Origin: Folioceros fuciformis | Lineage: Eukaryota | Length of the DNA: 64,000 nt | Assembly (NCBI GenBank): GCA_049999805.1 | Contig: JBNGIO010006303.1 | Coordinates: 17,895-81,894, forward strand | Direction of reading: 5' to 3' | Shown: piece by piece, positions 1 to 57,568 of the stretch | Position numbering within the stretch: position 1 is the stretch's first letter | Layout: each line of letters begins with the position of its first letter | Notes under the pieces: generated by a model | Seen by the model: the letters and a program-made list of their open reading frames with translations, nothing else | Databases searched by the model: none | Told to the model about the DNA's origin: nothing | Made by a program: the position numbers and the translations under genes

Positions 1-1434
1 ACAATGCCGGGGGCCAGGTGGTGGTCTGGGACGGCTACCCCGAGTCCGCTGGATTCAACCTCGCCGCCTGGGAGCTCACCTTGAATGAGAACAGCATCAA
101 CTTCCCCGGCCACCAGGACACCGACACTATTGCATACGTGGTGGAAGGTGGGGTGCTGGTGATGGGTTCTTGTATTGCGGGACGTGGTGGTGGTGGCGCG
201 GGGGTGGTGACGGGGTTGGGTGCTTGGGTTGCATGCAGGCCAGGCGAAGTACGGGCTGGTGATCGCCACCGGGAAGCGGGTGGACACCCAGACCGTTAAG
301 GCTGGGGATGTTATCCTCGTGCCCAAGGAGGCCTCCTTCTGGTTCTACAACGACGGCAAGGGCCCGTTCAAGGTGTGGGGAGGAGGGGATACCTCCAAGA
401 GCCTCAAGCCCGGCCACATTCTGGTGCGAATACGCTGCCATTGCCTCCTGCATTCTCGTGCTGCTCCGTCAGGTGGGTGTTGGGTTGACCCGCGTCGCTC
501 TTCTCCCGCAGAGGATCGACCACGTCGGCGCCGGGAGCCTGCTCCATGCCTTCTCCAAGGACGTGCTCGCCGCCGGCTTCAACGTGCCGGACGAGAACGC
601 GCTGAGCACGATTGTGCGCGCGCAGCACGAGATCAGCCTGGCCAAGCTCGACGCCCCTCTCGTCCTCTCCAGCCCGCCCTCCGTGCAGAACGGTGACCAC
701 GTCGAGAAGTGGCCGGGACAGGTGGTGTTCCCTCTGCTCAGCGAGCCCCCGCACTTCAGCATCCAGGGCGGAGGTGCGCTCTACAACCTGGTGACGACGT
801 ACGGCGAGTACCCCGAGCTCAAGGCTGTGCATCTCAGCATCGAGTACGGTGTCCAGGAGCCGGTGAGTACGCCTCCCTTCCCCGTGCGTGACGTGGTCAC
901 GACGGACTGCGGCTGTGTTCTGGCTTCCCAAGCTCACACGATTTTATTGGCGATGGCTGTGGCAGGGCTCCGTGCAGGGTCCGCTGTGGGCGCCCAACAA
1001 TCACATGCTCTACTACTTCACTAAGGGAAGCGGGCGCTACCAGATTGTGTCCCCGGTTCTGAGCGAGCTCCTGGTGGATACCGAGGTGCACCCCGGCCAG
1101 GTTGTGGCTATCCCAGCGCAGTACCCATTCGTCCTCATCGCAGGCGATGAGGGTGTGGAGTTCTTCACCTTCGCTGACGTCGACACGTGAGTCCCTTCCT
1201 CCTCAGCCTTCGTGCCCTCTTGTCTAATTTGGTTGGATTGCATTTCCTCACATCTCCTCCTCTTGTCCGCATTGCAGCCCCACCGGCAGCAGCCTGTACG
1301 CCCAATTCCTGGACTTCCCCAAGGAAATTGTGGCTGCTGCGTTCAACGTCCCTGTGGAGGGGCTTTCCACCTTCGTTGGCAAGCGCGATCACAACATCAT
1401 CCTCCCGGCTTCCAAGATCAAGTCCGTCGTCTAG
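1..1434 (+). CDS. Legumin-like (11S globulin-like) bicupin, paralog 1; 5' end lies outside the window
   Basis: Exons <1-147, 239-423, 512-862, 966-1186, 1278-1434 joined by GT-AG introns. Motifs FPGHQDTDTIAYVVEG, IKAGD-like/FWFYND and HMLYYFTKGSGR, with the end PASKIKSVV*. The layout resembles the plant legumin-like RmlC bicupin family (At1g07750/At2g28680 type, from recall). Confidence 0.85.
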
Positions 1435-1466
1435 GTCCTTGGGTCGTTGCCAGCTTGGGTTTTTGC

Positions 1467-1540
1467 ATCCTAGGTCGGATGCAGTGACTGGTGACGCTGT
1501 CTCACACCAGCCTGCTGAAGTGCGGAGTCGCAACTGGGAT
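1467..1540 (+). ncRNA. Conserved structured 3' UTR element, copy A
   Basis: ATCCTAG-GTCGGAT-GCAG..CTGGTG..CACCAG..CTGC-TGAAG-TGCG-GAGT-CGCA-A-CTGGGAT, starting 33 nt after the stop. It recurs at 1596 and 4959. Confidence 0.6.
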
Positions 1541-1595
1541 TGATCCCTCTGCCTGGCGTGCCTCTTCTACTAGCGTGTTTGTTTTGGGTCTTAAA

Positions 1596-1665
1596 ATCCT
1601 AGGCCGGAAGCAGTCGCAGGTGATGCTCTCACCAGACTGCTGAAGTGCGGAGTCGCAACTGGGAT
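1596..1665 (+). ncRNA. Conserved structured 3' UTR element, copy B
   Basis: ATCCTAG-GCCGGAA-GCAGTC..GGTGA..TCACC..GACTGC-TGAAG-TGCG-GAGT-CGCA-A-CTGGGAT. Confidence 0.6.
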
Positions 1666-3095
1666 CAGGCCTACTATAACTCTTCGGAGCGTCTTAACTA
1701 GACTACTACGTAATGTGTGTCTGTACAAACTACCATGGAAGCCTCGAGCTTTCCCTTCCATCGTTGTCTTCGTTTCAACATGGAAAATCTAAACATCCTT
1801 TCTTCTAGCTTGCTGTTCTTGTTCACCATCTCACTCCTGTTTTCCCTGAATTCGACATCTGCGCATCCTCGCACATCACTCCAACACTTTTCCATTCTAC
1901 TTGCAGCTTCAGGGACGTGAATTCCACCAACAAACAAAAGCGAAACACTCTTGGTGCAATCGCTTCGCGTTGAAGAGAACTACCAAAAAGCAAATCAAAG
2001 AGGAAGAAAGGTAAAGTGCTAGTCCCCCTCCGACGAATGCACCAAACATCATTTCAAAATCTCTGACAGGCAACTCTGAACCTGCCCTGGATCCGTCGGC
2101 TGTCTTTCTTGCAGTGCGATAAACATCTGCATCTACTGTCCACGGTTTCACCAAGGCTAACACCACCAAGCAGCGATACCCTATCTTGGAAGAAGGATAC
2201 TACATATCTATTGGACCTCGATCAGTCCTGGATCATCTCGTCGTTTCTGCCATCGCCATGTCCAGCTCTGGAGTTGTGTACTGGGAAACCCTTGACTTAG
2301 TCTGTAGTTACTGGAGAGATAGATGGTCTGTTTGGAGGCAGGAGTCTGTCACACCACTTTTTTTTGAATTGAAATAAAATAAAATAAAAGGGTCCTGGCC
2401 AGATCCCAGAATATGCGTACGTTGTGTAATCAAATATGTACCCTTAACCCTAAAATATTTTCCTCAAAAGTGCATACTTTACAATGGGTAGGTGAAACTA
2501 GCTTCTCTCTCACGTGATGTGAGAGAGTGGCAGAAGAGCACAGCGCTGCCCTGGCCTGCTCTGCTCATTAGAATGATACATAAATGTACGTTTCACATGA
2601 ATGAAATGCGCGCTCCCGGGTGTCTCAGTGCCAGGGACTGGCACAGGCGTAACAACGTTATTTATGTCCAGCCGTGCGGCCTTTTAACTTATTACCGGAG
2701 CGGGAGGTACATCGTACATCGTTCTCGACGCTTGGCGCGCCCGCATGACGGGCTGCAGTACAGCTGACGCCAGAGCATCTCCACTGGGGAAGCCGCTTGA
2801 CCCGTGCAGGGCTCAAGGTAAGGGAGGAGGCGGGGCCATGGCAGGAGCGATCCTTCCCCGCACCACCTCCTCGTGCTGCTGTTGTCTTTTTTTTTCTTTC
2901 CTTCCTCACCTGCGATTTGATTCTTTGTAAACGCTTGCCACGATTCCGTCTGCATCTGCACTTGGCCCCGACCGGCGTCTAGGAGCATCGGGGTCAGGGC
3001 TCGGCTTAGTGCGGGATGGATTACACCTGCTCTTCATTGGCGCTCTCTGAATAACCGCATCCGGAGCTCCTCGCGCACTACAGGCCAGAGCGGGG

Positions 3096-3103
3096 TATAA
3101 AAA
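3096..3103 (+). promoter_or_regulatory. TATA box of bicupin paralog 2
   Basis: TATAAAAA about 105 nt upstream of the ATG at 3209. Confidence 0.7.
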
Positions 3104-3208
3104 GACGTCACAGGAGGCAAGCAATTCAGGCACAAGTTTCTTTCTCATCCCGCCTTGTCCTGCTCCAGGTTCCTTCTGTGTTTTGGCTTGTCTCGGACGA
3201 CAGCGGCT

Positions 3209-4927
3209 ATGGCTAGCTTCAGATCTCTTCTGATTGTCGCCTGCCTGGCGGTGTTGGCCACCTGCGCGAGTGCCCTGGACCTCTCTCCCAGCTACGGCCG
3301 TCTCACCGTTCACAATGCTGGTGGCCAGGTCGTCGTGTGGGACGGCTATCCCGAGTCCGCGGGATTCAATCTTGCCGCCTGGGAGCTCACTTTGAATGAA
3401 AACAGCATCAATTTCCCCGGCCACCAGGACACCGACACCGTTGCCTACGTCGTGGAAGGTGCGAGTCGGCTTGACATGAAGACGACTTCTTCTTAGCGTT
3501 GGGATCTTGCATGCAATGGTTATCGCGTTCCCTCGCGCGAATAACGTAGAATCTTTCCTGCTATTGCTGCGGTTTTTTCCCTCGCTCTAGGATCGGATCA
3601 CCTGGTCTCATTGCATGTGCTTCGCGCGATCGCGTGCAGGTCAGGCAAAATACGGTCTGGTCATTGCTACCGGCAAGAGAGTGGAGACCAAGACGATCAA
3701 GGCCGGTGACGTGATTCTCGTCCCCAAGGAAGCAAGCTTCTGGTTTTACAACGATGGAACAGGCATCTTCAAGGTCTGGGGAGGCGGTGACACTACTAAG
3801 AGCCTCAAGACGGGCCATATCCTGGTAATTACGCGGCTGTGCTCCCTTTGCACCTCTAGCTTGTGCAAGCGCACATTGGGCAAGATTTATGCAAATGTTG
3901 CAGACATCTTGAAGCTTCCATGCTGACGACATTGAATTTTTCTGTCATTGTCGACGCTGCAGCGAATTGACGCCGTTGGCGCTGGTAGCCTCCTCCACGG
4001 CTTCACCACAGACGTTTTGGCAGCTGGCTTCAATGTTGACGAGGCCACTATCAGCAAGGTTGTCAAAGCGCAGCACGAGATCAGCCTCGCCAAGTTGGAT
4101 GCACCTCTGCACCTTTCTGGCCCGTCTCCCGTCCTTGGCGGAGACCACGTCGAGACCTGGCCTGGACAGGTTGTGTTCCCTCTCTTGAGCGAGGCCCCTC
4201 ATTTCTCCATCAACGGTGGCGGTGCGCTGTACAACTTGGTGACTTCCTACGGCGAGTATCCCGAATTGAAGGCTGTCAGCCTCAGCGTCGAGTACGGAGT
4301 GCAGGAACCTGTAAGTCTATCGTCCTCGCAACTTGCTCCATTTTCCTCCTTCACACTTACTGTCATCGACTTCCCTCCCACTGGAAGAGTAGCCTAACTC
4401 GCACGGGTGCTCGTGTCCTTCGTCGATAGGGATCCTTCCTTGGGCCTCTCTGGGCGCCCAACAACCACATGCTCTACTACTTCACCAAGGGAAGTGCCCG
4501 GTACCAAATCGTCTCCCCGGTGAACTCTGAGCTCTTGGTAGACACCCAGGTGTTCCCAGGACAGGTGGTTGCCATTCCCGCACAGTACCCCTTCGTCGTC
4601 GTGGCAGGATCCGAGGGAGTCGAATACTTCACATTTGCCGACAACGATACGTAAGCGCCGTTTAACTTGGGTCTTGTCCTTTTCTGTCGTCAGTCAGAAG
4701 CTCCGGTAGTTTCGGACCTGTCTTATAACTTTAATACACATAACCCGGATGTCAATGTTGTGCGCAGGCCCACCGGCAGCAGCTTGTACGCAGAATTCTT
4801 GGACTTCCCCAAGGAGCTTGTGGCAGCTGCCTTCAACGTCCCTGTGGACCAGGTGTCCACCTTCGTCGGCAAGCGTGACCACAACATCATCTTCCCTGCC
4901 TCCAACAAGATTCAGTCCGTAGTCTAG
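3209..4927 (+). CDS. Secreted legumin-like bicupin, paralog 2
   Basis: Begins MASFRSLLIVACLAVLATCASA|LDLSPSYGR (signal-peptide-like). Five exons (~3209-3458, 3640-3824, 3963-4310, 4430-4651, 4768-4927) with the same intron positions as paralog 1; the protein is highly similar and ends PASNKIQSVV*. Confidence 0.88.
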
Positions 4928-4958
4928 CTTGCTTGTTGCAAGTGAGGAGAGGTTGGAC

Positions 4959-5036
4959 ATCCTAGGTCGGATGCAGCGAGTAGCAGTTCTCACCTGCTGC
5001 TACAATCTGCTGAAGTGCGGAGCCGCAACTGGTGGT
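4959..5036 (+). ncRNA. Conserved structured 3' UTR element, copy C
   Basis: ATCCTAG-GTCGGAT-GCAG..GTAGCAG..CTGCTAC..CTGC-TGAAG-TGCG-GAGC-CGCA-A-CTGGTGGT, starting 32 nt after the stop of paralog 2. Confidence 0.6.
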
Positions 5037-5479
5037 GCCTACCTCGTGAATGCTGGATGCATGTCTTCGTAGAAAGAAAAATACAAGCACCTAAACGCTC
5101 CTGGGCCCGGCTAAAATAAACCCAGGAGCGCTGGTCCTGTAGCCCTGTTTGGTCTTTCTGTAAAAAGTGAAACTTCGTCGGAGAATGCTTAAATATCAGT
5201 TTGCAGCAGCGTTTTTTCTCTGTCCATCCATACATATATCAACTACGTTTGTCTGCGTTTACGGATGATTCACATTGGGCCCGGTGTCGGTGCCTCAGTG
5301 CCGCCGCCACAAGCGCTGATGACTAGCTTCTCCCCGGAACCGGACAGGGCGTCCTGACTCATGTGTCGTTTCGTTTCTTGTGAGACCGCAATTTTTTTTC
5401 AACTTGTTTTCCATAATTTGTGCACATGCACAGTAGAGGATACCCTATGAGGCCATGCAAGTGTGCCATGAGACGCACA

Positions 5480-6130
5480 GTTCAGATGCTCGTCTTTGTC
5501 GCTTCTCTTCAAGCTGCGCTGAAGTGGCAAAACATCACAGTGCCTGGTGAACATGGTATGTACTGCATAGGCTACATGTGGCGAACTCAAAGATGCACGC
5601 CAGGCTTTGGAGAAAAGGATGTGGTGACGTGGACGGCGCTGATTGCTGGACTATTTGTAAACAGCAAGGGCCTGGACAAGAGGCGCTGTTGTGTATGAAC
5701 CAATGGAGCAAGAAGGCCTGATAGTGGCTCACCATGTTACTGTTGCTTGCCTTCTGAGCCTGTGAAAGCGAGGCGTCCTGCAGAAGGGCAGGTATCTGCA
5801 CTCACAGACTGTGGAATGAAGACAGCTAGGTAACATACGAGTGGGCAAATGGCTGCTGGATAGATATGTAAAGTGTGGCGAATGGGATGTGCAAGCGATG
5901 TTTTTGAAAGCATGGCCAGAAAGGATGCGTTGTCCTGGAAATTCCAGATTGTAGATAATAGTGCATTCAATGCATCTGCATTCCCACATTGTTAAAGAGG
6001 ATAGTCGCTACTGGATGACATACTGGTGAGCAACAGTCTGGGGGACATGCCTGCAAAATTTGGTGAACTGAAAGACGTATGACAGACTTTTCACAGCTTG
6101 GTTACAAAGAACGTGCTAGCATGGACCTAC
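5480..6130 (+). pseudogene. Degenerate PLS-class PPR gene fragment
   Basis: PPR motif remnants in shifting frames with stops: EKDVVTWTALIAG, VFESMARKDALSW, VSNSLGDMPAKFGELKD, FHSLVTKNVLAWT. Confidence 0.7.
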
Positions 6131-21816: not shown

Positions 21817-24678
21817 CTAAAACGCACTCCAATCAAAGGAGGGTTTGGTTGTCTGTCCTCCTGGACCTTGCCCCGCAGTTGCACCAAATGGCCCTGTCCC
21901 CGCGAAAGGATCATCATCAAACGATCCAAACTTCTGGCGAGGATTATCTTTCGCGCTGCTGAATGAATCAAAGCGCATGAAAGTCTCACGGCTGGTATCC
22001 GTGCGTGCAAACGTCTTGACATGAGCAGGGCTCTCTGTGAACAGAGAAGTTCCAAAAGTACCACCAGCAGAACTGTTGAAGAAGTCGCTCTCATCTTTTG
22101 AAGAAGCAAATGACGTGAAAGATCCAGCAAAATTATCTGCCAAGGAATGTCCGTTGCCATGGTCAACCCTGCCTGGACTTGAAACATCCGAAGATCTGAT
22201 GTCTACAGGGGAGTCACCAAAAGCATCGAAGGTTCTTGGAGTGGGAGGCCCCACAACTTCCTTCTCAACAGGCTCTGGATCAAACTGATGCCGGTGAGAG
22301 AAGAGAGTGCTCTCAGCCACACTTTTTGGAGATCCATCCTCACTCTCAGCTCTGAAAGACCCACCAGTTGATGATAACTTCTCAGAAGCAGCGACGTGCG
22401 CACCATTCTCTGGCAGCTTTGAATCAGAAGGGAACTCAAAGCCATCATCGAAGAAGGTGCCGTCATCCCAGCTGATAGGTGCGCTTACATTGGTCGCAGC
22501 TGGAACAGGAGGAACAACATGGTTCTCTTCGATCTTGTCAGTTAGTTCCTGGCTTGGGGCTTCATCCACAGGCGTAAAACCCTCATCGTCAAATTTATCC
22601 CAGTCCTCATCCCACTCAGCCGCTGTCTCCTGAAGACCAGGCTGCCATCCAAACGGTGGCTCGACAGCCACAGAGGACTTCGCCTTCAAACCTAGGCGTT
22701 TAGCCCGCTCAGTGAAAGCTTTTCTCAATTCATCCAAATCCTGTGAGATGCGATCTGCCTGCTTCTGCAGTAGGACATTCCCATCCCCACCCTGGTCCAT
22801 CTTTGCAATAGCATGGTACAGATCCATCTTTCTTTGCTGTAAGTCTCGAAATGCAGCCTCTTCTGCTAGCAAACGAGAGTGAGACTCTCCACTTTGCTTA
22901 AACTTCTCATCGTACTTTTTAGACAGCGCCTCAACCTCCCGCTTGTCTGACGCAGCTCTCTCCACAGTTTCTGCCAGCCGGTTGTCACACCGAGTCTTGA
23001 AAAGTATGATCTCCTGCAACTTGGTCTTGTAAAACTCCATCTTCTCCTTGGAGTCCATGATGTCCCTGTCCATCTCGTAAGCCTTCTTCTCGGCATCTTC
23101 AGCCTCCTGATGCTTCGTCTTGAGTGCCTCCTGCTCATCTTTGTGCAACTGGGCAACTAGATGTGGCTCCAGAACCGGAAGTTTCGACTTGAACGCCCCC
23201 GCTTTGTCGGCCTCTGGAGCCACCACAGGACGCTGCACCTGAGGCTGGACAAAGCCTGGACCCTGCTGCTCAGGTCCAACAGACACCTGAGGCGGAACAA
23301 GGCCCGGAGCCCGCTGCCAAAGGGCCACATTATATCCTCCTGATTGATGAGACATCACCTCCTGTGCCTCAGCAACACGTTTAGCTGCTATTGATTGCCA
23401 CTCATCAGTGGCCGGCTCGTCCAAATGAAACCCAGGAGGCAGAACGGGTGGAATAGGCCGACCCTCCCTCCACCGATCCATAAGATACAGAGCCGTACAG
23501 AACTCTCTGAGCGACAGCATGCTGTCTCCATCCTGATCTGACAAGTCCCATACCTGCTTCAACACCTCCCTAGGCAGCTGCCAGCTGAGGAAAAGGTCTC
23601 GAGCCTCTGTACCGGATATTTTCCCATCCTTGTCCCTATCCACCACAGCAAACACCTTAGAGTACCGCTGCTTATCAGCCTGAGTCATCTTCGGCCAAGG
23701 GGCGGACGTCGGAGGAGGACCAGCCGTTGCAAGGGCAGAGCTAACCTCAGGAGGCCTGGCCGCAACACTTGGAGCAACAGTCCCGGACCCGGCCTGAGTA
23801 ACTGCTGGCGTAGTGGGAACAAGAGCAAGGCCAGCTTCCGCCTGGAAGGTAGACTCCCCGAAAACAGCTGCAGTGCTGCTCGCCTGCGTCTTCTGCTGCA
23901 CGGGTGCTGCCACAGGCTTCACAGAACTCGTGCTCAGAGGATCCAAACCACGCGACGGCTCGGAAGATGAGCCGATGCTGGTCGGAGTCACCTTAAACCC
24001 TGCCCCGGAAAATGCATCTAACGTATCCAAAGAAGGAGCAGAAGCTGCTGGCTTCCCCTGGAGAGCATTTCCACCGCCTCTCGGACTCGGGAGTTGGCCA
24101 CCCGCTGCAGATCCAGGCCCCNNNNNNNNNNNNNNNNNNNNNNNNNNNNNNNNNNNNNNNNNNNNNNNNNNNNNNNNNNNNNNNNNNNNNNNNNNNNNNN
24201 NNNNNNNNNNNNNNNNNNNNNCCCCTGCCCCTACTCTCAGCTGGCCCGGAGGAGGAGTCAGAGGCACAGGACGTGCAGAAAAACCAGGTGAAGGACTCGG
24301 ACCATAACTCTGCGGCTGCGGCTGCTGGGGCTGCTGCTGGGGCTGAGGAGCCAAGCCACCTGCAATACCGCCGGGAGCGGCTATCTTCGGAGGAGGAATC
24401 TGCGCTGCTGCAGGTCCGGCCAGAGCCGCGCGCACAATTTCATACGATAGCTCCCGCCCGGTCTGAGCCACCGTGACGAGCTTGAGAGCATTGTAGAATT
24501 CCGGCCTGGACAGAAACCCCCGCTGACCCTGGTCCGCAAATTGCCAAATCTTGGCTAGCGTCGCCTGCGGTAGATTGGCTCCCTGGAAGAATGCCACAGC
24601 CTCATTGCCGCTGATCTGGCCATCTCCATTCAAATCGGCTCGCCGGAAGTAGAGATCAAACACCTCCGGGTTGGCCAT
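21817..24678 (-). CDS. EH-domain (Eps15 homology) endocytic adaptor, AtEH1/EH2 (Pan1-like, TPLATE complex) homolog
   Basis: Two EH domains (FRRADLNGDGQISGNEAVAFF..LAKIW; WPKMT..DRDKDGKISGTEAR..LKQVWDLSDQDGDSMLSLREF), a coiled coil, WDEDWDKFDDEGF and the C-terminal WSAF. Uninterrupted ORF apart from a 100-N gap. Confidence 0.92.
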   Translation of the reverse strand: MANPEVFDLYFRRADLNGDGQISGNEAVAFFQGANLPQATLAKIWQFADQGQRGFLSRPEFYNALKLVTVAQTGRELSYEIVRAALAGPAAAQIPPPKIAAPGGIAGGLAPQPQQQPQQPQPQSYGPSPSPGFSARPVPLTPPPGQLRVGAGXXXXXXXXXXXXXXXXXXXXXXXXXXXXXXXXXXGPGSAAGGQLPSPRGGGNALQGKPAASAPSLDTLDAFSGAGFKVTPTSIGSSSEPSRGLDPLSTSSVKPVAAPVQQKTQASSTAAVFGESTFQAEAGLALVPTTPAVTQAGSGTVAPSVAARPPEVSSALATAGPPPTSAPWPKMTQADKQRYSKVFAVVDRDKDGKISGTEARDLFLSWQLPREVLKQVWDLSDQDGDSMLSLREFCTALYLMDRWREGRPIPPVLPPGFHLDEPATDEWQSIAAKRVAEAQEVMSHQSGGYNVALWQRAPGLVPPQVSVGPEQQGPGFVQPQVQRPVVAPEADKAGAFKSKLPVLEPHLVAQLHKDEQEALKTKHQEAEDAEKKAYEMDRDIMDSKEKMEFYKTKLQEIILFKTRCDNRLAETVERAASDKREVEALSKKYDEKFKQSGESHSRLLAEEAAFRDLQQRKMDLYHAIAKMDQGGDGNVLLQKQADRISQDLDELRKAFTERAKRLGLKAKSSVAVEPPFGWQPGLQETAAEWDEDWDKFDDEGFTPVDEAPSQELTDKIEENHVVPPVPAATNVSAPISWDDGTFFDDGFEFPSDSKLPENGAHVAASEKLSSTGGSFRAESEDGSPKSVAESTLFSHRHQFDPEPVEKEVVGPPTPRTFDAFGDSPVDIRSSDVSSPGRVDHGNGHSLADNFAGSFTSFASSKDESDFFNSSAGGTFGTSLFTESPAHVKTFARTDTSRETFMRFDSFSSAKDNPRQKFGSFDDDPFAGTGPFGATAGQGPGGQTTKPSFDWSAF
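24122..24221. other. Assembly gap (100 N)
   Basis: Run of N. Confidence 1.
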
Positions 24679-25235
24679 GGCCGGCATGGGAAGGCCGCAA
24701 CCCCTCCGCCCCTAGGAGGTCAAACGAGGGAAGCGGAGACACCGTAAGACCGCAGGCTGCGATACAAAGACACCCGGATCTGCTCCCCTCCTGAGACCTC
24801 GATGCGTCAGGGTTTCCGTTTCGCATCCATCTCCTCCTGCTCCCAGCTGAGCACACTGTCCCGCCAACACGCAGCAGGGAAGTATCGTGACGCCACTCCC
24901 CCGCGTTTCGCGAGCTTTTTCATCCAGAACGAAACGAGTTAGTCTACCACACGTTCGTCGCCCTAGGGCAGCAAACACATTTCACTTCACGCAACGCAGT
25001 ACGCAATAGGTAGGAAGAAGTTGAAGCAGCCAGCATCTGTTCGTACGCCCGTTGAGTCGAGTGAGAACAGAGCTGGACTCGATGGCAACGGGAATCGGAA
25101 TGGCAACGGAATGAAAGCGCCAGATGCGCGGTAACATTGAAACTTCTAGTAAGGAAAAACGGTGGGAAAAAAAGCCCAAGCAGAATGAGACAACCAAAGA
25201 CGGCCACGATTGGTTTGGTTGTAACGGTCCCACTA

Positions 25236-43193: not shown

Positions 43194-44597
43194 ATGGCAG
43201 CCAAACTCCGAGCCGTGATTTGGTGGACACTTCTGATTGCCATGGTGCTGTCATCCTTGTTGCTGCAAGCTCCTCTCTTCCTGCGTAATTGGCCGGTGGG
43301 CAACGCGGCCTGCGTGTGCAACAGCGGAGCTACCAACTGCGATGCAAACTTCGCCGAAGAGCAGAGGCCGCAGCAGCAACAATTCTATGCGCACGGGACG
43401 GCGCACTACGGGTTTGTCCAATTCGGCGCATACCGGCAGTCCCCTCGCACCTTCTTCATCGTCGGCATCACCTCGGTGGCTGTGCGGGACTACACACCTC
43501 CGGTCCAAGCATGTGAGTGGAAGAGCAACGGAGGCGGCAGCGCAACGGCACCCGCAGAGATAATCTACATCGGCTTCGACGAGAACGGGGCCCTGTTCGT
43601 GCCGGCCATCGTCAACTGCTCGTTCCCAGACCCGGTAGGCGGAGACGGACTGGGAGGCGAGCTCTCCATCCAGCTCCCTGCGGGAGCGCGGGGAGGGAAG
43701 ACAATCACGGTGCTGGCAATGGCGGAGGAGCGCGGAGCAGCGACAAGCTTCTTCCACTCGCCGGCTCCCCGGCTGGCGTATGCCTTCTGCGGGCCGCCGA
43801 TGCATTCGGAGGTGCGGGCGGAGTGGATCCTGCACTGGCTCGTCTACCACCACGCCCTGTGGCAGCAGCAGGCGCACTTCTTCTTCTACAACGTCGGGGG
43901 GCTGAAGCCGCAACAACGCCGCCTCTTCCTACCTTACATCCGCGCCGGAGTGCTCACCATCACGGAAGTGGCGCGGGAGGCAGACTTCCCTTCTTGGTAC
44001 TACCAGCAGCCGCTCCTGGCCAACGACTGCCTCCACCGCTCCCGCTTCCTGGCGGACTGGACCTTCTTCCTGGACTTCGACGAGTTCCTCCACGTCCCGG
44101 CACCGGCATCCCTCCCGGCCCTTCTGCTCCTCCACCGGCAGGCCCCCTGGATCTCCTTCGGCAGCCTCCCCGTCTCCCACAGCCACTGCCTGGACACCGG
44201 CCCCGATCTTTGGCCCGTGGAGCGCATGCAGTGGAGACACAGCGCGCCGGAGTGCATGCATTCGGACAAGGATCCCTGGACCTGCGTGGCGGCCCCCGGG
44301 AGAAGGAAGTACGCAGTGAATCCCAGGGCGGTATTCGCAGCCGGTGTGCACAGGAGTGCGCTACCGGAGGACGGAGGAGTGGATTTGAACGCGTCCGTGG
44401 CCAGGATCCACCATTATCACGGCGTGCTGGCCCCGCAGGTGGAGCTCTGCCACCACCATGTGAACGTCTCCCAACCCCTGGAGCACTTGGATTGGCTCAT
44501 GCCAGGCTTCGCCAATTACGTTCACGACCCGGAGCTGGCCGCGCTGGTGTCGGCCGCCCGCCGGGCTTGGCTTTCTTCCAGACCCGGCCGCAGCTGA
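43194..44597 (+). CDS. Glycosyltransferase family 92 / DUF23 (galactan synthase GALS-like), type II membrane protein, intronless
   Basis: N-terminal transmembrane segment, FVQFGAYR, YAFCGPPM, WLVYH, WYYQQPLLANDCLHR, FFLDFDEF (DxD), RKYAVNPR..GVH and HHYHG. Confidence 0.88.
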   Translation: MAAKLRAVIWWTLLIAMVLSSLLLQAPLFLRNWPVGNAACVCNSGATNCDANFAEEQRPQQQQFYAHGTAHYGFVQFGAYRQSPRTFFIVGITSVAVRDYTPPVQACEWKSNGGGSATAPAEIIYIGFDENGALFVPAIVNCSFPDPVGGDGLGGELSIQLPAGARGGKTITVLAMAEERGAATSFFHSPAPRLAYAFCGPPMHSEVRAEWILHWLVYHHALWQQQAHFFFYNVGGLKPQQRRLFLPYIRAGVLTITEVAREADFPSWYYQQPLLANDCLHRSRFLADWTFFLDFDEFLHVPAPASLPALLLLHRQAPWISFGSLPVSHSHCLDTGPDLWPVERMQWRHSAPECMHSDKDPWTCVAAPGRRKYAVNPRAVFAAGVHRSALPEDGGVDLNASVARIHHYHGVLAPQVELCHHHVNVSQPLEHLDWLMPGFANYVHDPELAALVSAARRAWLSSRPGRS

Positions 44598-48254: not shown

Positions 48255-48327
48255 GGTCGCGTGGCCTAATGGATAAGGCGCTCGCCTCCGGAGCGGGAGA
48301 TTGCGGGTTCGAGTCCCGCCGTGATCG
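48255..48327 (+). tRNA. tRNA-Arg (CCG)
   Basis: 73 nt. Acceptor stem GGTCGCG/CGTGATC, D-arm TGGCCTAATGGATAAGGC, anticodon arm CTCGC-CTCCGGA-GCGGG, T-loop GGTTCGAGTCC, with T-runs downstream. Confidence 0.95.
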
Positions 48328-54627: not shown

Positions 54628-57568
54628 TCACCACTGATCTCCGCATGTACACGCGCCGTTTACGAAGTGGTGATAGCAGCTTGGATCCCTGACAAGAATT
54701 TGACGTTTGACTATTTGGGAAAGGGACTTCAAAGCATTGTGACAGTCCCCGCACACTCTAAGATTCTTTGCTATGCGAATAGTTGTCCCGGGGGGTGTGT
54801 TGATGAGCGCGAAGGCAAGGGCTAGCTTTTCGGCGTGGAGGTGCAGAGGCCTTTCCCTTTCGTCCTCGTCGGCGTCATGTAGCACAACACCTGAGACGGG
54901 GGCATCGTGCCCTGCTTCCTTCAGATACCCCCATAGGTTGTTCACACTAGAGTAGATCTCTTGGGACTGAGGGTGGGACTCATCGCCAGCGGTAAATTCG
55001 TGCACCTTCTGGTTGAACTCGATCGAGCACACGGCGGTCTCCTTCCTGGTGCCGTTCATTACCATCAGCTTTCTCACCCTTGCCTCATCATCCCACCTTT
55101 TCAGATAACCGTAAGTGTTGGCTAGCATGACGTAAGGGGCTGGGTCCTCCTTGTCTATGGCGAAGAGCTTGTCTGCAGCGATTTCTGCCAACTCTATGGC
55201 TCTGTGGTAGCTACAAGCCTTGAGCAGAGCCATCCAGACTCTAGAACCAGGGCGGCCTGGAAGATTGAGGATGAAGTTCTCCGCAGCTTGAAATTGCCTA
55301 GCTCGACCAAGGAGGTCAACCATGCAGGCGTGGTGCTCCTCCTCTGGACTGATGCCATAGTCAGGAGCCATGGACTCATACAACTTTTGGCCCTCCTTCA
55401 CCATACCCAAGTGTGCATATACTCCCAGGGCCGCAGCCAATGCTCCCCGGTCAAGGTCCACTTTTTCCTGGAACAACTGCTTCAAAAGGTCGAGTGCCTC
55501 GCCACCGAGTCCATGCTGGGTGTATGCCGCCAACATCGCTGTCCAGGACACACAGTCCTTGCTTGATAGCTTGTCGAACACCTGGCGAGCATCCTCTATA
55601 CTCCCACACTTGGCGTACATATCTACCAGGCTGTTTTCGATGAAGATGTCAGGGAGTAACTTGCGTTCGTTGATTAGGGTATGGACCTGCTTACCATGCT
55701 CCAAGGCAGCTGCATCTGCACATGCACTAAGAACAGAAGGAAACGTTTTGAATGTCGGCTCAAACTTCTCGTTTAACATCTCCTGGTAAAGCAACAATGC
55801 CTCTTTGCCCAGCCTACACCTGGCATACCCTGTGATGATTGAAGTCCATGAAACAACAGTCCGCTCCTTCATTCTGTCAAAGATCATGCGTGCAGTGTGT
55901 ATGTCCCCACATTTGGCATACATGTCAATGAGAGAATTGACCACGAGTACATCTCCTTCATATTCAGCATTCATGATTTTGGTGTGCATTTGCTGTCCCA
56001 CATCCAGAGCACGTATGCTAGCACAAACATTGAGGGAAAGGACAAAAGTCACCCTGTCGGGTTTTCCACCGCCCTTTGTGAATGCTGTAAACAGTCCCAA
56101 AACTGCTCTACCCCGTCCGGCCGTCATATACCCTGCAAGCATTGCGTTCAATAGTACAACGTCCGGCTGGTTGACACTGTCAAATACTTGACGTGCGCTT
56201 TCTATGCTTCCACATTTGGCATACATGTGGACGAGTGCACACATGACTGCTCTGTCGTTCCCAAATCCACGTCTTTTAATGTCATCATGTATTCGCCTGC
56301 CAAAGTTACGAGTTGAACATGCCATCAGGAGCTGGACATACGCCTGTGAATTCATAATCACACCTTGTTCTTGCATTTTCTGAAAAAGGTGAGATGCCTC
56401 CTTTTCGATCCCATTCTGAGCATATCCAGCAATAATCGTTGTCCATGACAGCAACTGGTGTGCTATCATATTGTCAAAGATGTCACGAGCATCAGATACG
56501 CTCTTGCACTTGACATACATGTCGATGAGGGAGTTCTCCAGCAGAGTATCCAAGACCACGCCACTGCTGATGATATGAGCATGAACTTCCTTCGCCTTCT
56601 CCAAATCAGCCAACTCAGCACATGCCTTCACCATCACAGTTCCCAAAATCTTGTCAGGCTTTACACCTTCTGCCACCATGTTCTGATAGACTTTAAATGC
56701 CTGCTCGCCAAGTCCGACATTGATATAACCCTGAACAAGTGCACTCCAGGAAATGACGTTCTTGTTCCTCAATTTGTCGAACAATTTTTGGGCTTCCGAC
56801 ATCTGTTCACAACTGGTGTACAGCCGGACAAGGTTGGTACCGAGAAATAGCGTCGTCTCCCAACCACGTCGCACAATGTGAGCTCGGACCCGCTCACCCT
56901 CAGCTAGAGACTTCGTCCTGATGCAGTCCTGCAAGAGAGAATCATAAACGTCGTTGTTCACTCGAACCCCTTGCTCCGACATAATATCCAGAAGATGCAG
57001 AGCCTCCTTCAACCGACCCTCTCTGCAGAATTTCCTCAACTCTCCAGAAGGCCCAGGGTCAAGTCTGGAACTTGGAAACCTGTGAGAACGAAGCACACTA
57101 ACCGCAAAATTCAGGCTTTACTTTCCAGCCTACAGTCAGAGCCTCAAAGCTAACAAATCGAGAAGAACGACAACCTGCCCTGACGCCGGGTTGAGCTCTC
57201 AGCATCCAAGGCCCGACGCCCTGTTTCCACCACCACGCCAGAGTCTCGTCGTGAGGACGAAGACTCCTTGCTCATACCTCGCCAGTCCTCACTGTGTAGG
57301 ACCCGACAGAACCCCAAGAGGCTTGACATCTGCAATTGTAAAACATCTGAAAATGCGACGTCACGCAAGATTCCCCGACCTAGCTCGGTTGGCACCAGAT
57401 GACGCCGCCGAAATGAGGTAGGCTCACCTTATGGAGATGACCATTCCAGCTTTCCAGAATAGCTCCCTCAAAGCCACCTGGAGAGCAGCCAGCATTGGCG
57501 GCGGGACTGTACTGGCGCAGCACATGCTTGAATCTGCTCCTCAAACCTCGGATTGAGCTGGTCCCCAT
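54628..57568 (-). CDS. PLS-class PPR protein with E1-E2 and a variant DYW deaminase domain (ends DQW)
   Basis: Exons 57568-57428, 57329-57175 and 57079-54628 are phase-compatible and give 915 aa. About 17 P/L/S repeats, HAEKLA and CGDC zinc motifs, and an Arg/Ser-rich N-terminus resembling a targeting peptide. Confidence 0.93.

Follow-up and report, generated by a model that had tools for sequence, protein, structure and literature searches.

Why do two neighbouring genes of a hornwort carry the same short stretch of RNA about 30 nt after their stop codons? The question arises from 64,000 nucleotides of Folioceros fuciformis DNA (GenBank assembly GCA_049999805.1, contig JBNGIO010006303.1, positions 17,895 to 81,894 of the forward strand), analysed as a whole and here called the window. 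Three copies of the stretch lie in it, two (A and B) in the 3' untranslated region (UTR) of one bicupin gene, gene 1, and one (C) in that of a second, gene 2. The original prediction, drawn from the letters of this DNA, described them as a repeated three-way-junction RNA motif. Our results indicate that they represent a previously uncatalogued element of the 3' UTR, which is under strong selection and probably forms a three-way junction whose core resembles a kink-turn.

The copies lie where they had been placed, all on the + strand and beyond what chance would produce. Copy A occupies positions 1467-1540, copy B follows in tandem at 1596-1665, 129 nt after A, and copy C occupies 4959-5036. 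Copies A and C begin 32 and 31 nt past the respective stop codons, which corrects the earlier offsets of 33 and 32 nt. When up to three mismatches are allowed, the 26-mer CTGCTGAAGTGCGGAGYCGCAACTGG occurs three times in the window, always on the + strand, against a chance expectation of 0.00, and none of 100 shuffles held three or more occurrences. A covariance model built from the three copies gave them scores of 98.3, 85.9 and 85.7 bits; among its 21 matches at E<=10, the runner-up reached 15.2 bits. Neither the model nor the 26-mer pattern revealed a fourth copy in the 64-kb window, which holds no antisense copy either.

Each copy can be parsed into the layout first proposed. An outer helix, P1 (AUCCUAG/CUGG(G)AU), leads through junction J1, G(U/C)CGGA(U/A), to the base of helix P2 (GCAG/CUGC); junction J2 (UGAAG) then leads to a small hairpin, P3 (UGCG-GAG(U/C)-CGCA), and to a single A. 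In copy A, the strands of P1 lie at 1467-1473/1534-1540, those of the P2 base at 1481-1484/1512-1515, P3 at 1521-1532 and the single A at 1533. Copy C differs in its P3 loop, which reads GAGC, and in the 3' strand of P1, CUGGUGGU, where there is one extra U and one U-A pair has become U-G. Beyond its base, P2 is spelled differently in every copy and still pairs, as had been noticed: CUGGUG/CACCAG in A, GCAGUC/GACUGC plus GGUGA/UCACC in B, and GUAGCAGU/GCUGCUAC in C. The distal P2 sequences of A and B nevertheless align (GGUGA...CUCAC(A)CC), and UCUCACC is retained in the loop of C. Because of this alignment, A and B are not independent, and their shared letters clearly point to an origin through local duplication.

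The element lies inside the mature mRNAs of both genes. Contigs of run X3 show GT..AG joints at all introns of the two genes; we treat this run as spliced RNA because its contigs join exons at these boundaries, and not on account of the run label. Gene 1 (1..1434, + strand) is truncated at its 5' end by the window edge and is delineated by spliced joints, its reading frame and the Cupin_1 matches of the corresponding gene 2 exons. The joints of the RNA contigs set its exons at 1-145, 237-422, 511-862, 966-1186 and 1278-1434, with a TAG stop at 1432-1434, and its 3' UTR (1435..1813) is given by an RNA contig with a poly(A) end. Gene 2 (3209..4927, + strand) is complete and encodes 387 amino acids, as supported by RNA contigs, translation and Cupin_1. 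Its exons lie at 3209-3456, 3638-3823, 3962-4310, 4430-4650 and 4768-4927, and its TAG stop at 4925-4927. The 3' UTR of gene 2 is drawn at 4928..5101, which is the reach of one spliced RNA contig (record 7, 4768-5101 in this part). This contig, 1198 nt long, runs from exon 1 through exon 5 and across copy C to position 5101, and RNA contigs of gene 1 span copies A and B. A poly(A) site upstream of the element had been named as an observation that would speak against the motif; the site of gene 1, marked by the trailing A run of one RNA contig, lies at about 1813, 3' of both copies and 148 nt after copy B. Contigs of this kind are uninformative on expression levels, RNA ends and small RNAs, and their depths were not used to rank the genes.

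The two transcripts show further features around the element. A minor spliced form of gene 1 (window 1421-2356) uses a GT..AG joint from 1421 to 1907 (depth 61) and then a joint from 2008 to 2113. Lost from this form are the last four codons with the stop, copies A and B, and the poly(A) site near 1813; its C-terminus would be slightly altered. At the point where the gene 2 contig stops (5101) there is a perfect 10-bp inverted repeat (5096-5105 / 5121-5130) with AATAAA in its 15-nt loop, which may be a 3'-end hairpin or just the cause of an assembly break. In addition, the 9-mer TGTCTTCGT is common to both UTRs 3' of the element (1765-1773 and 5062-5070); it may be meaningless, as about 0.4 chance 9-mer matches are expected. 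The letters GCCTAC stand directly after copies B and C (window 1672 and 5039).

How old, then, is the resemblance between the two UTRs? Judged by their sequences, the genes are old tandem paralogs with saturated neutral sites. Their proteins are identical at 304/352 positions (86.4%) and their coding nucleotides at 830/1056 (78.6%), and only 68 of 155 four-fold degenerate sites agree (43.9%; Jukes-Cantor distance about 1.0). The introns, which had been described as dissimilar by eye, offer merely 1 to 20 alignable columns, and on neither side of the element can the two UTRs be aligned. In contrast to all of this, the cores of copies A and C are identical at 18/18 and 35/36 positions (53/54 together). 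The best 54-nt coding window between the paralogs reaches 51/54, the longest perfect coding run is 26 nt, and the binomial probability of at least 53/54 matches at the coding identity is 3.5e-05. Moreover, conservation starts and stops at the two strands of helix P1. The UTRs share 12 runs found as 7-mers where about 6 were expected; all runs of at least 16 nt fall inside the element, and outside it shared 7-mers are at chance level. Altogether, the comparison shows nucleotide-level purifying selection on the element, the simplest account of its two cores, and this selection is stronger than that on the coding sequence. The claim of a selected RNA-level feature within the mRNA is thus upheld, with conservation exceeding that of both the four-fold sites and the coding sequence.

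These figures also bear on two rival explanations. One is that the element is a leftover of duplication or of local gene conversion, without a role of its own. The genes are indeed tandem paralogs, and A and B themselves come from a local duplication. However, old paralogs with near-perfect element cores argue for selection and lead us to reject recent duplication alone, which had been named beforehand as a refuting explanation: the four-fold sites, introns and remaining UTRs have diverged or cannot be aligned, while the cores stand at 53/54. A single gene-conversion tract is disfavoured because it would have homogenised the middle of the element, the distal P2, which differs between the paralogs in substitutions and indels, and the 18- and 36-nt cores are too short for separate tracts. 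We regard this explanation as most improbable. Scarcely better placed is the proposal that a dispersed mobile element, resembling a miniature inverted-repeat transposable element (MITE) or a short interspersed nuclear element (SINE), left a fragment or copy of itself in both UTRs. P1 does resemble a 7-bp terminal inverted repeat, and the tandem duplication in gene 1 would fit. Yet the copies share their orientation and a near-equal distance from the stop in paralogs with saturated neutral sites, no target-site duplication flanks any of the three, the 64 kb hold no other copy, and neutral decay would not leave 53/54 identity. In DNA run X1, four contigs fall on the 5.4-kb stretch and none are piled on the element, evidence that is weak because the assembly is patchy. 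Hence, a mobile origin seems very unlikely to us.

If the element is selected, is it selected as a fold? We consider a three-way junction likely. RNAalifold applied to the three copies returns such a junction with 19 pairs; 98.2% of the cells pair, versus 24-55% when the partners are slid. In copy A, the minimum free energy (MFE) fold is this junction, and in copy B the junction and the MFE fold differ by no more than 1.7 kcal/mol. The inner ends of the conserved blocks pair as the P2 base, and P3 sits within the second block. The distal P2 insert was matched in stability by 195/2000 shuffles for A, 31/2000 for B and 7/2000 for C. P1 carries U.G pairs and the minus strand fails to form P1, which together favour a fold of the sense strand.

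Several observations weigh against this fold. Fifteen of the 19 pairs, those of P1, the P2 base and P3, are invariant, so that recognition of the linear sequence fits them as well as structure does. Two-sided changes are limited to three pairs of the distal helix, and the covariation score was reached in 29/500 shuffles. Single-sequence folding z-scores are -0.45, -1.97 and -0.61, the junction of copy C lies 3.0 kcal/mol above the MFE, and, once 40-100 nt of flank are included, P1 receives a predicted probability between 0.00 and 0.71. Every inference draws, moreover, on three related copies from one genome. The earlier argument from variable but pairing stems therefore stands in part: the distal P2 hairpin has been kept with different letters, but this is one short helix in three related copies. 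In the same way, selection within the mRNA is retained from the idea of a selected RNA fold, while thermodynamic support for the fold is weak and depends on context.

The invariance of the helices is also what speaks for a linear motif, in which sites for small RNAs (microRNAs or small interfering RNAs) or for single-strand RNA-binding proteins would be conserved and the helices incidental. These stems (P1, the P2 base and P3) vary no more than the junctions do, the folding energies do not stand out and shift with context, and the storage-protein zipcodes described in PMC9656906 are short linear motifs. However, the 18- and 36-nt blocks are complementary to each other precisely at their extremities, over the 7 bp of P1 on the outside and the 4 bp of the P2 base on the inside. 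Besides, the hairpin between the blocks has been rebuilt with different letters (7/2000 and 31/2000 shuffles), and the 36-nt block exceeds one small-RNA site, with no antisense copy in the window. A purely linear motif is thus unlikely, although we rate it above every other alternative to a junction.

A further fold complicates the picture. As had been pointed out, copies A and C can form a competing hairpin, CAUCC/GGAUG, whose predicted probability reaches 0.97 for A with 40-nt flanks. In copy B, both substitutions cut this hairpin to three pairs, with a predicted probability of 0.00. The hairpin therefore exists in A and C, but the switch suggested for it is not shared by B. Such toggling might take place if the element were a ligand riboswitch or a self-cleaving ribozyme. 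The thiamine pyrophosphate (TPP) riboswitch offers a precedent, as it lies in a plant 3' UTR and forms a three-way junction (a k-junction) whose letters are invariant, and the minor splice form of gene 1 removes the whole UTR. Against this, no riboswitch or ribozyme family matches at E<=10 and the hammerhead core is absent. The conserved letters are those of the junction and the short stems, while the long arm able to form a pocket is free to vary; storage-type bicupins suggest no obvious metabolite logic. In addition, copy B lacks the competing hairpin and contigs pass intact through all copies. The proposal of a ligand sensor or ribozyme accordingly finds no support, and we place its probability near the bottom of the range.

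Why are the junction letters of the preferred three-way junction so constant? They had been taken as single-stranded, but non-canonical pairs fit them better: a tandem of G.A and A.G, together with U.U, would extend P2. With 5'-GAUGCAG-3' opposite 5'-CUGCUGA-3', the succession is G.A, A.G and U.U, then G-C, C-G, A-U and G-C. GAUG over CUGA is the consensus core of the box C/D kink-turn. In copy A, the putative G1b, A2b and U3b fall at 1478-1480 and the putative U3n, G2n and A1n at 1516-1518; the putative G1b and A2b lie at 1607-1608 in copy B and 4970-4971 in copy C, and the putative G2n and A1n at 1642-1643 and 5012-5013. Copy B, whose J1 reads GCCGGAA, has A-U at position 3b.3n in place of the U.U of A and C. 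On these letters, the junctions may form a box C/D-like kink-turn with P3 as its third helix, a reading that would explain the invariance and that we advance tentatively, as somewhat doubtful.

Kink-turns are defined by a short loop followed by G.A and A.G pairs (PMC5061560). In k-junctions, as set out in PMC4005666 and PMC10573300, the loop has four nucleotides (L1, L1.1, L2 and L3) and a third helix is placed on the non-bulged strand; the examples given there are TPP riboswitches, the DUF-3268 RNA, and junctions J4,5 and J94/99 of the Haloarcula marismortui 23S rRNA. Directly 3' of this loop come G1b.A1n and A2b.G2n, a tandem of trans sugar-Hoogsteen pairs. In the formal description, 2HS2HS4, the third helix starts directly at A1n and two T-C connector nucleotides pair with L1 and L1.1 (PMC4005666; PMC10573300). 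The element resembles this arrangement in its regular helix (P1), its 4-nt loop, the G.A and A.G pairs that would open P2, and the placing of P3, as third helix, on the non-bulged strand. The loop between P1 and G1b is GUCG in A (1474-1477) and C and GCCG in B, and G and A on the b strand as well as G and A on the n strand are correctly placed, by their letters, in 3/3 copies. It differs in lying in a eukaryotic mRNA 3' UTR, in having no ligand-binding arms and no Rfam match, and in that its fold is predicted. The third helix does not follow A1n directly and the two T-C connectors are absent; instead, AG (1519-1520 in copy A) follows A1n and a single A stands between P3 and P1.

The linkers are the first of several points against a kink-turn: they measure 2 nt (A1n-P3) and 1 nt (P3-P1) here, and 0 and 2 in TPP and DUF-3268. 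Moreover, the loop position preceding G1b is a G. In box C and U4 RNAs a U stands before G1b, and this U is important for the protein 15.5K/SNU13. A GA/GA tandem would arise by chance at some helix end in about 2% of such junctions, which makes its presence suggestive only. L7Ae did not fold the k-junctions of Arabidopsis or DUF-3268 in the assays reported in PMC10573300, and a partner of the L7Ae family is therefore not implied. By the 3b.3n rules, U.U or A-U mark types that need protein to fold (PMC5061560), whereas TPP k-junctions with C-G at this position still fold in Mg2+ (PMC4005666; PMC10573300). Because TPP k-junctions break these simple rules, we give no weight to the protein dependence that they suggest. 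A pseudoknot between J1 and the P3 loop was also considered and dropped, as the two lack complementarity.

Does the element belong to a known class? No Rfam family matches it, whether the whole window is scanned at the gathering score or 1400-5100 (both strands) at E<=10; these scans cover TPP, all ribozyme classes, the selenocysteine insertion sequence (SECIS), small nucleolar RNAs (snoRNAs) and tRNA. ARAGORN found 0 tRNA genes in 1-6000. The dissimilarity to the TPP riboswitch and to the hammerhead that had been noted thus holds. The TPP riboswitch (RF00059), found in the 3' UTR of plant THIC, has a k-junction as its junction; our element, also from a plant 3' UTR, would likewise be structured as a three-way junction. 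Unlike the riboswitch, the element contains no TPP-binding consensus and gives no RF00059 match at E<=10, and the helix open to the mRNA is the C helix, where in TPP it is the T helix. The hammerhead is likewise a three-way junction, whose strands between the helices follow one another as they do here, at 7, a few and 1 nt. Its core reads CUGANGA / GAA / H (CUGANGA...GAAA), whereas the junction here reads GUCGGAU / UGAAG / A, with no sign of cleavage.

SECIS elements combine an AUGA...GA core with unpaired AA(R) at the apical loop or a bulge, and the gene itself has a UGA in frame. They, too, are 3'-UTR structures with a G.A/A.G core, which is putative here, and share with our element a conservation above that of the coding sequence. 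The core is CGGA and not AUGA, however, and the apical loop has no unpaired AA(R). This candidate was rejected, as neither gene contains an in-frame UGA and no SECIS model matched. Two other candidates were set aside. As a stimulator of stop-codon readthrough, the element would stand about 30 nt away, with the next in-frame stops only 12 and 5 codons on; as a coding sequence, it would carry stop codons, as well as indels whose lengths are not divisible by 3.

The box C/D kink-turn (of snoRNAs and U3 B/C) and the U4 5' stem-loop, which are bound by SNU13/15.5K/L7Ae, share with the element GAUG opposite CUGA and a terminal stem. Box C/D snoRNAs have a C box RUGAUGA, a D box CUGA next to a terminal stem, and a 10-21-nt guide upstream of D or D'. 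The element could accordingly be a processed small RNA hosted by the UTR, of box C/D or tRNA-like kind. It has the GAUG/CUGA core and the terminal stem, measures 70-78 nt and occurs twice in tandem in gene 1, A and B recalling the polycistronic snoRNA clusters of plants, while P1 plus P3 would give a stack like acceptor and T arm. But the C-like box, CGGAUGC, agrees with RUGAUGA at 5/7 positions and has a G at the protruding-U position; P3 parts the D-like CUGA from the terminal stem; C'/D' boxes are missing; and no guide is conserved, the stretch between the boxes, upstream of CUGA, being self-paired and different in each copy. No snoRNA or tRNA family matched at E<=10 and ARAGORN was null. 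The element resides in mRNA and contigs run intact through all copies, although contigs cannot show small RNAs. A processed small RNA therefore appears very unlikely, only a little less so than a mobile element.

Which proteins do these messages encode? Cupin_1 is matched by the exon translations of gene 2 (8.5e-07 and 1.8e-10). Among 627 candidates, the sole relative of its exon 3 is P0001, a EukProt accession of the hornwort Nothoceros aenigmaticus, which is 59% identical over exon 3 and carries two Cupin_1 stretches. With 40 PDB sequences matched at E<=0.01 (prunin best, 8e-14), the solved structures nearest to P0001 belong to 11S globulins and vicilins. From the Cupin_1 matches, the two stretches in P0001 and the kinship with 11S globulins and vicilins, we take genes 1 and 2 to be bicupins, in agreement with the label first given to them. 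The N-terminus of gene 2 is hydrophobic and, judged by eye, looks like a signal peptide.

We give about an even chance to the proposal that the copies represent a single RNA element acting in cis from the 3' UTRs of two tandem paralogs of old origin, which encode 11S/7S-globulin-like bicupins, and that this element is a docking site for a factor. The sense strand would fold into P1 (7 bp), P2 (a long hairpin with a variable tip) and P3 (an invariant 4-bp hairpin). 5'-GAUG-3' and 5'-CUGA-3' would extend P2 through G.A, A.G and U.U (A-U in B) atop G-C, this core would be joined to P1 by the 4-nt G(U/C)CG loop, and with P3 on the non-bulged strand it would become a k-junction-like module. Such a module would keep P2 sharply angled to the stack of P1 and P3, and might thereby give a trans-acting factor, most likely a protein, a platform on which to dock. 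A member of the L7Ae family would be the first candidate, though a very uncertain one. For these secretory storage-type bicupin mRNAs, the factor would govern stability, translation or targeting to the endoplasmic reticulum (ER). Of this proposal, the position within the mRNA, the selection and the complementarity are shown, whereas the fold, the kink-turn, the partner and the effect on the mRNA are inferred.

The last of these outcomes has its nearest functional parallel in rice, where the glutelin mRNA has a 3'-UTR zipcode (PMC9656906). Glutelin and prolamine zipcodes are 3'-UTR cis-elements of secretory storage-protein mRNAs, and glutelin is also an 11S bicupin. The likeness is one of role only: these zipcodes are short U-rich linear motifs bound by RNA recognition motif (RRM) proteins (PMC9656906), and they have no sequence resemblance to our element. 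A control of stability or translation appears as possible as a zipcode-like localisation.

A bolder proposal would make the element the founder of a new class of eukaryotic mRNA elements, namely a kink-turn-based three-way junction with novel linkers that exerts protein- or ligand-dependent control of the tandemly expanded bicupin genes of hornworts. We hold this to be improbable.

In the literature searched, no plant or hornwort 3'-UTR kink-turn or structured element of this kind was described. The core DNA pattern had 0 matches in metagenome, viral and prokaryote genome contigs, and among 438 pattern matches in metagenomes 0 bicupin-encoding loci were confirmed by tblastn. The known distribution of the element comprises two genes in one genome.

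The wider family may be larger than these two genes. RNA and DNA contigs that leave short coding matches into unlike sequence indicate further, more distant bicupin paralogs elsewhere in the genome; contig loose ends of this type lie at 325, 1111 and 4501. In the hornwort Anthoceros angustus, the bicupin family is described as much enlarged via tandem duplication (PMC7027989). One RNA contig links exon 2 of gene 1 to exon 4 of gene 2 (363 to 4450, CC..CT, without splice signals) and is probably an assembly chimera of the paralogs. In run X4, from another organism of the same study, two short contigs are 100% identical to gene 1 exons (514-759 and 1029-1186, depth about 3), which looks like carry-over between libraries rather than an ortholog; in run X6, no contig matched the locus.

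Elsewhere in the window, an intron-less gene at 54628-57096 (- strand) encodes a pentatricopeptide repeat (PPR) protein with E, E+ and DYW deaminase domains, whose best named relatives come from lycophytes, liverworts and gymnosperms at 37-44% identity. A 956-amino-acid open reading frame (ORF) with EH/EF-hand domains lies at 21817-24687 (- strand) and a glycosyltransferase family 92 ORF at 43194-44597 (+ strand). The only Rfam tRNA in the window is found at 48255-48327 (+ strand).

Nuclear plant mRNAs with a short non-coding element better conserved than their own coding sequence are rare, and apart from the TPP riboswitch no well-established structured regulatory RNA of such a kind is known in plants. 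A correct kink-turn reading would add a new architectural variant to the k-junctions; if the element founds a new class, plant 3' UTRs would have in it their second regulatory RNA of k-junction type, the TPP riboswitch being the first. Should the element be confined to these two genes, it would stand as a clean but local case of a selected 3'-UTR element. Recurrence in other bicupin paralogs and other hornwort genera, in contrast, would reveal how the family is controlled post-transcriptionally, and the element would then provide a portable UTR module for hornwort transgenes.

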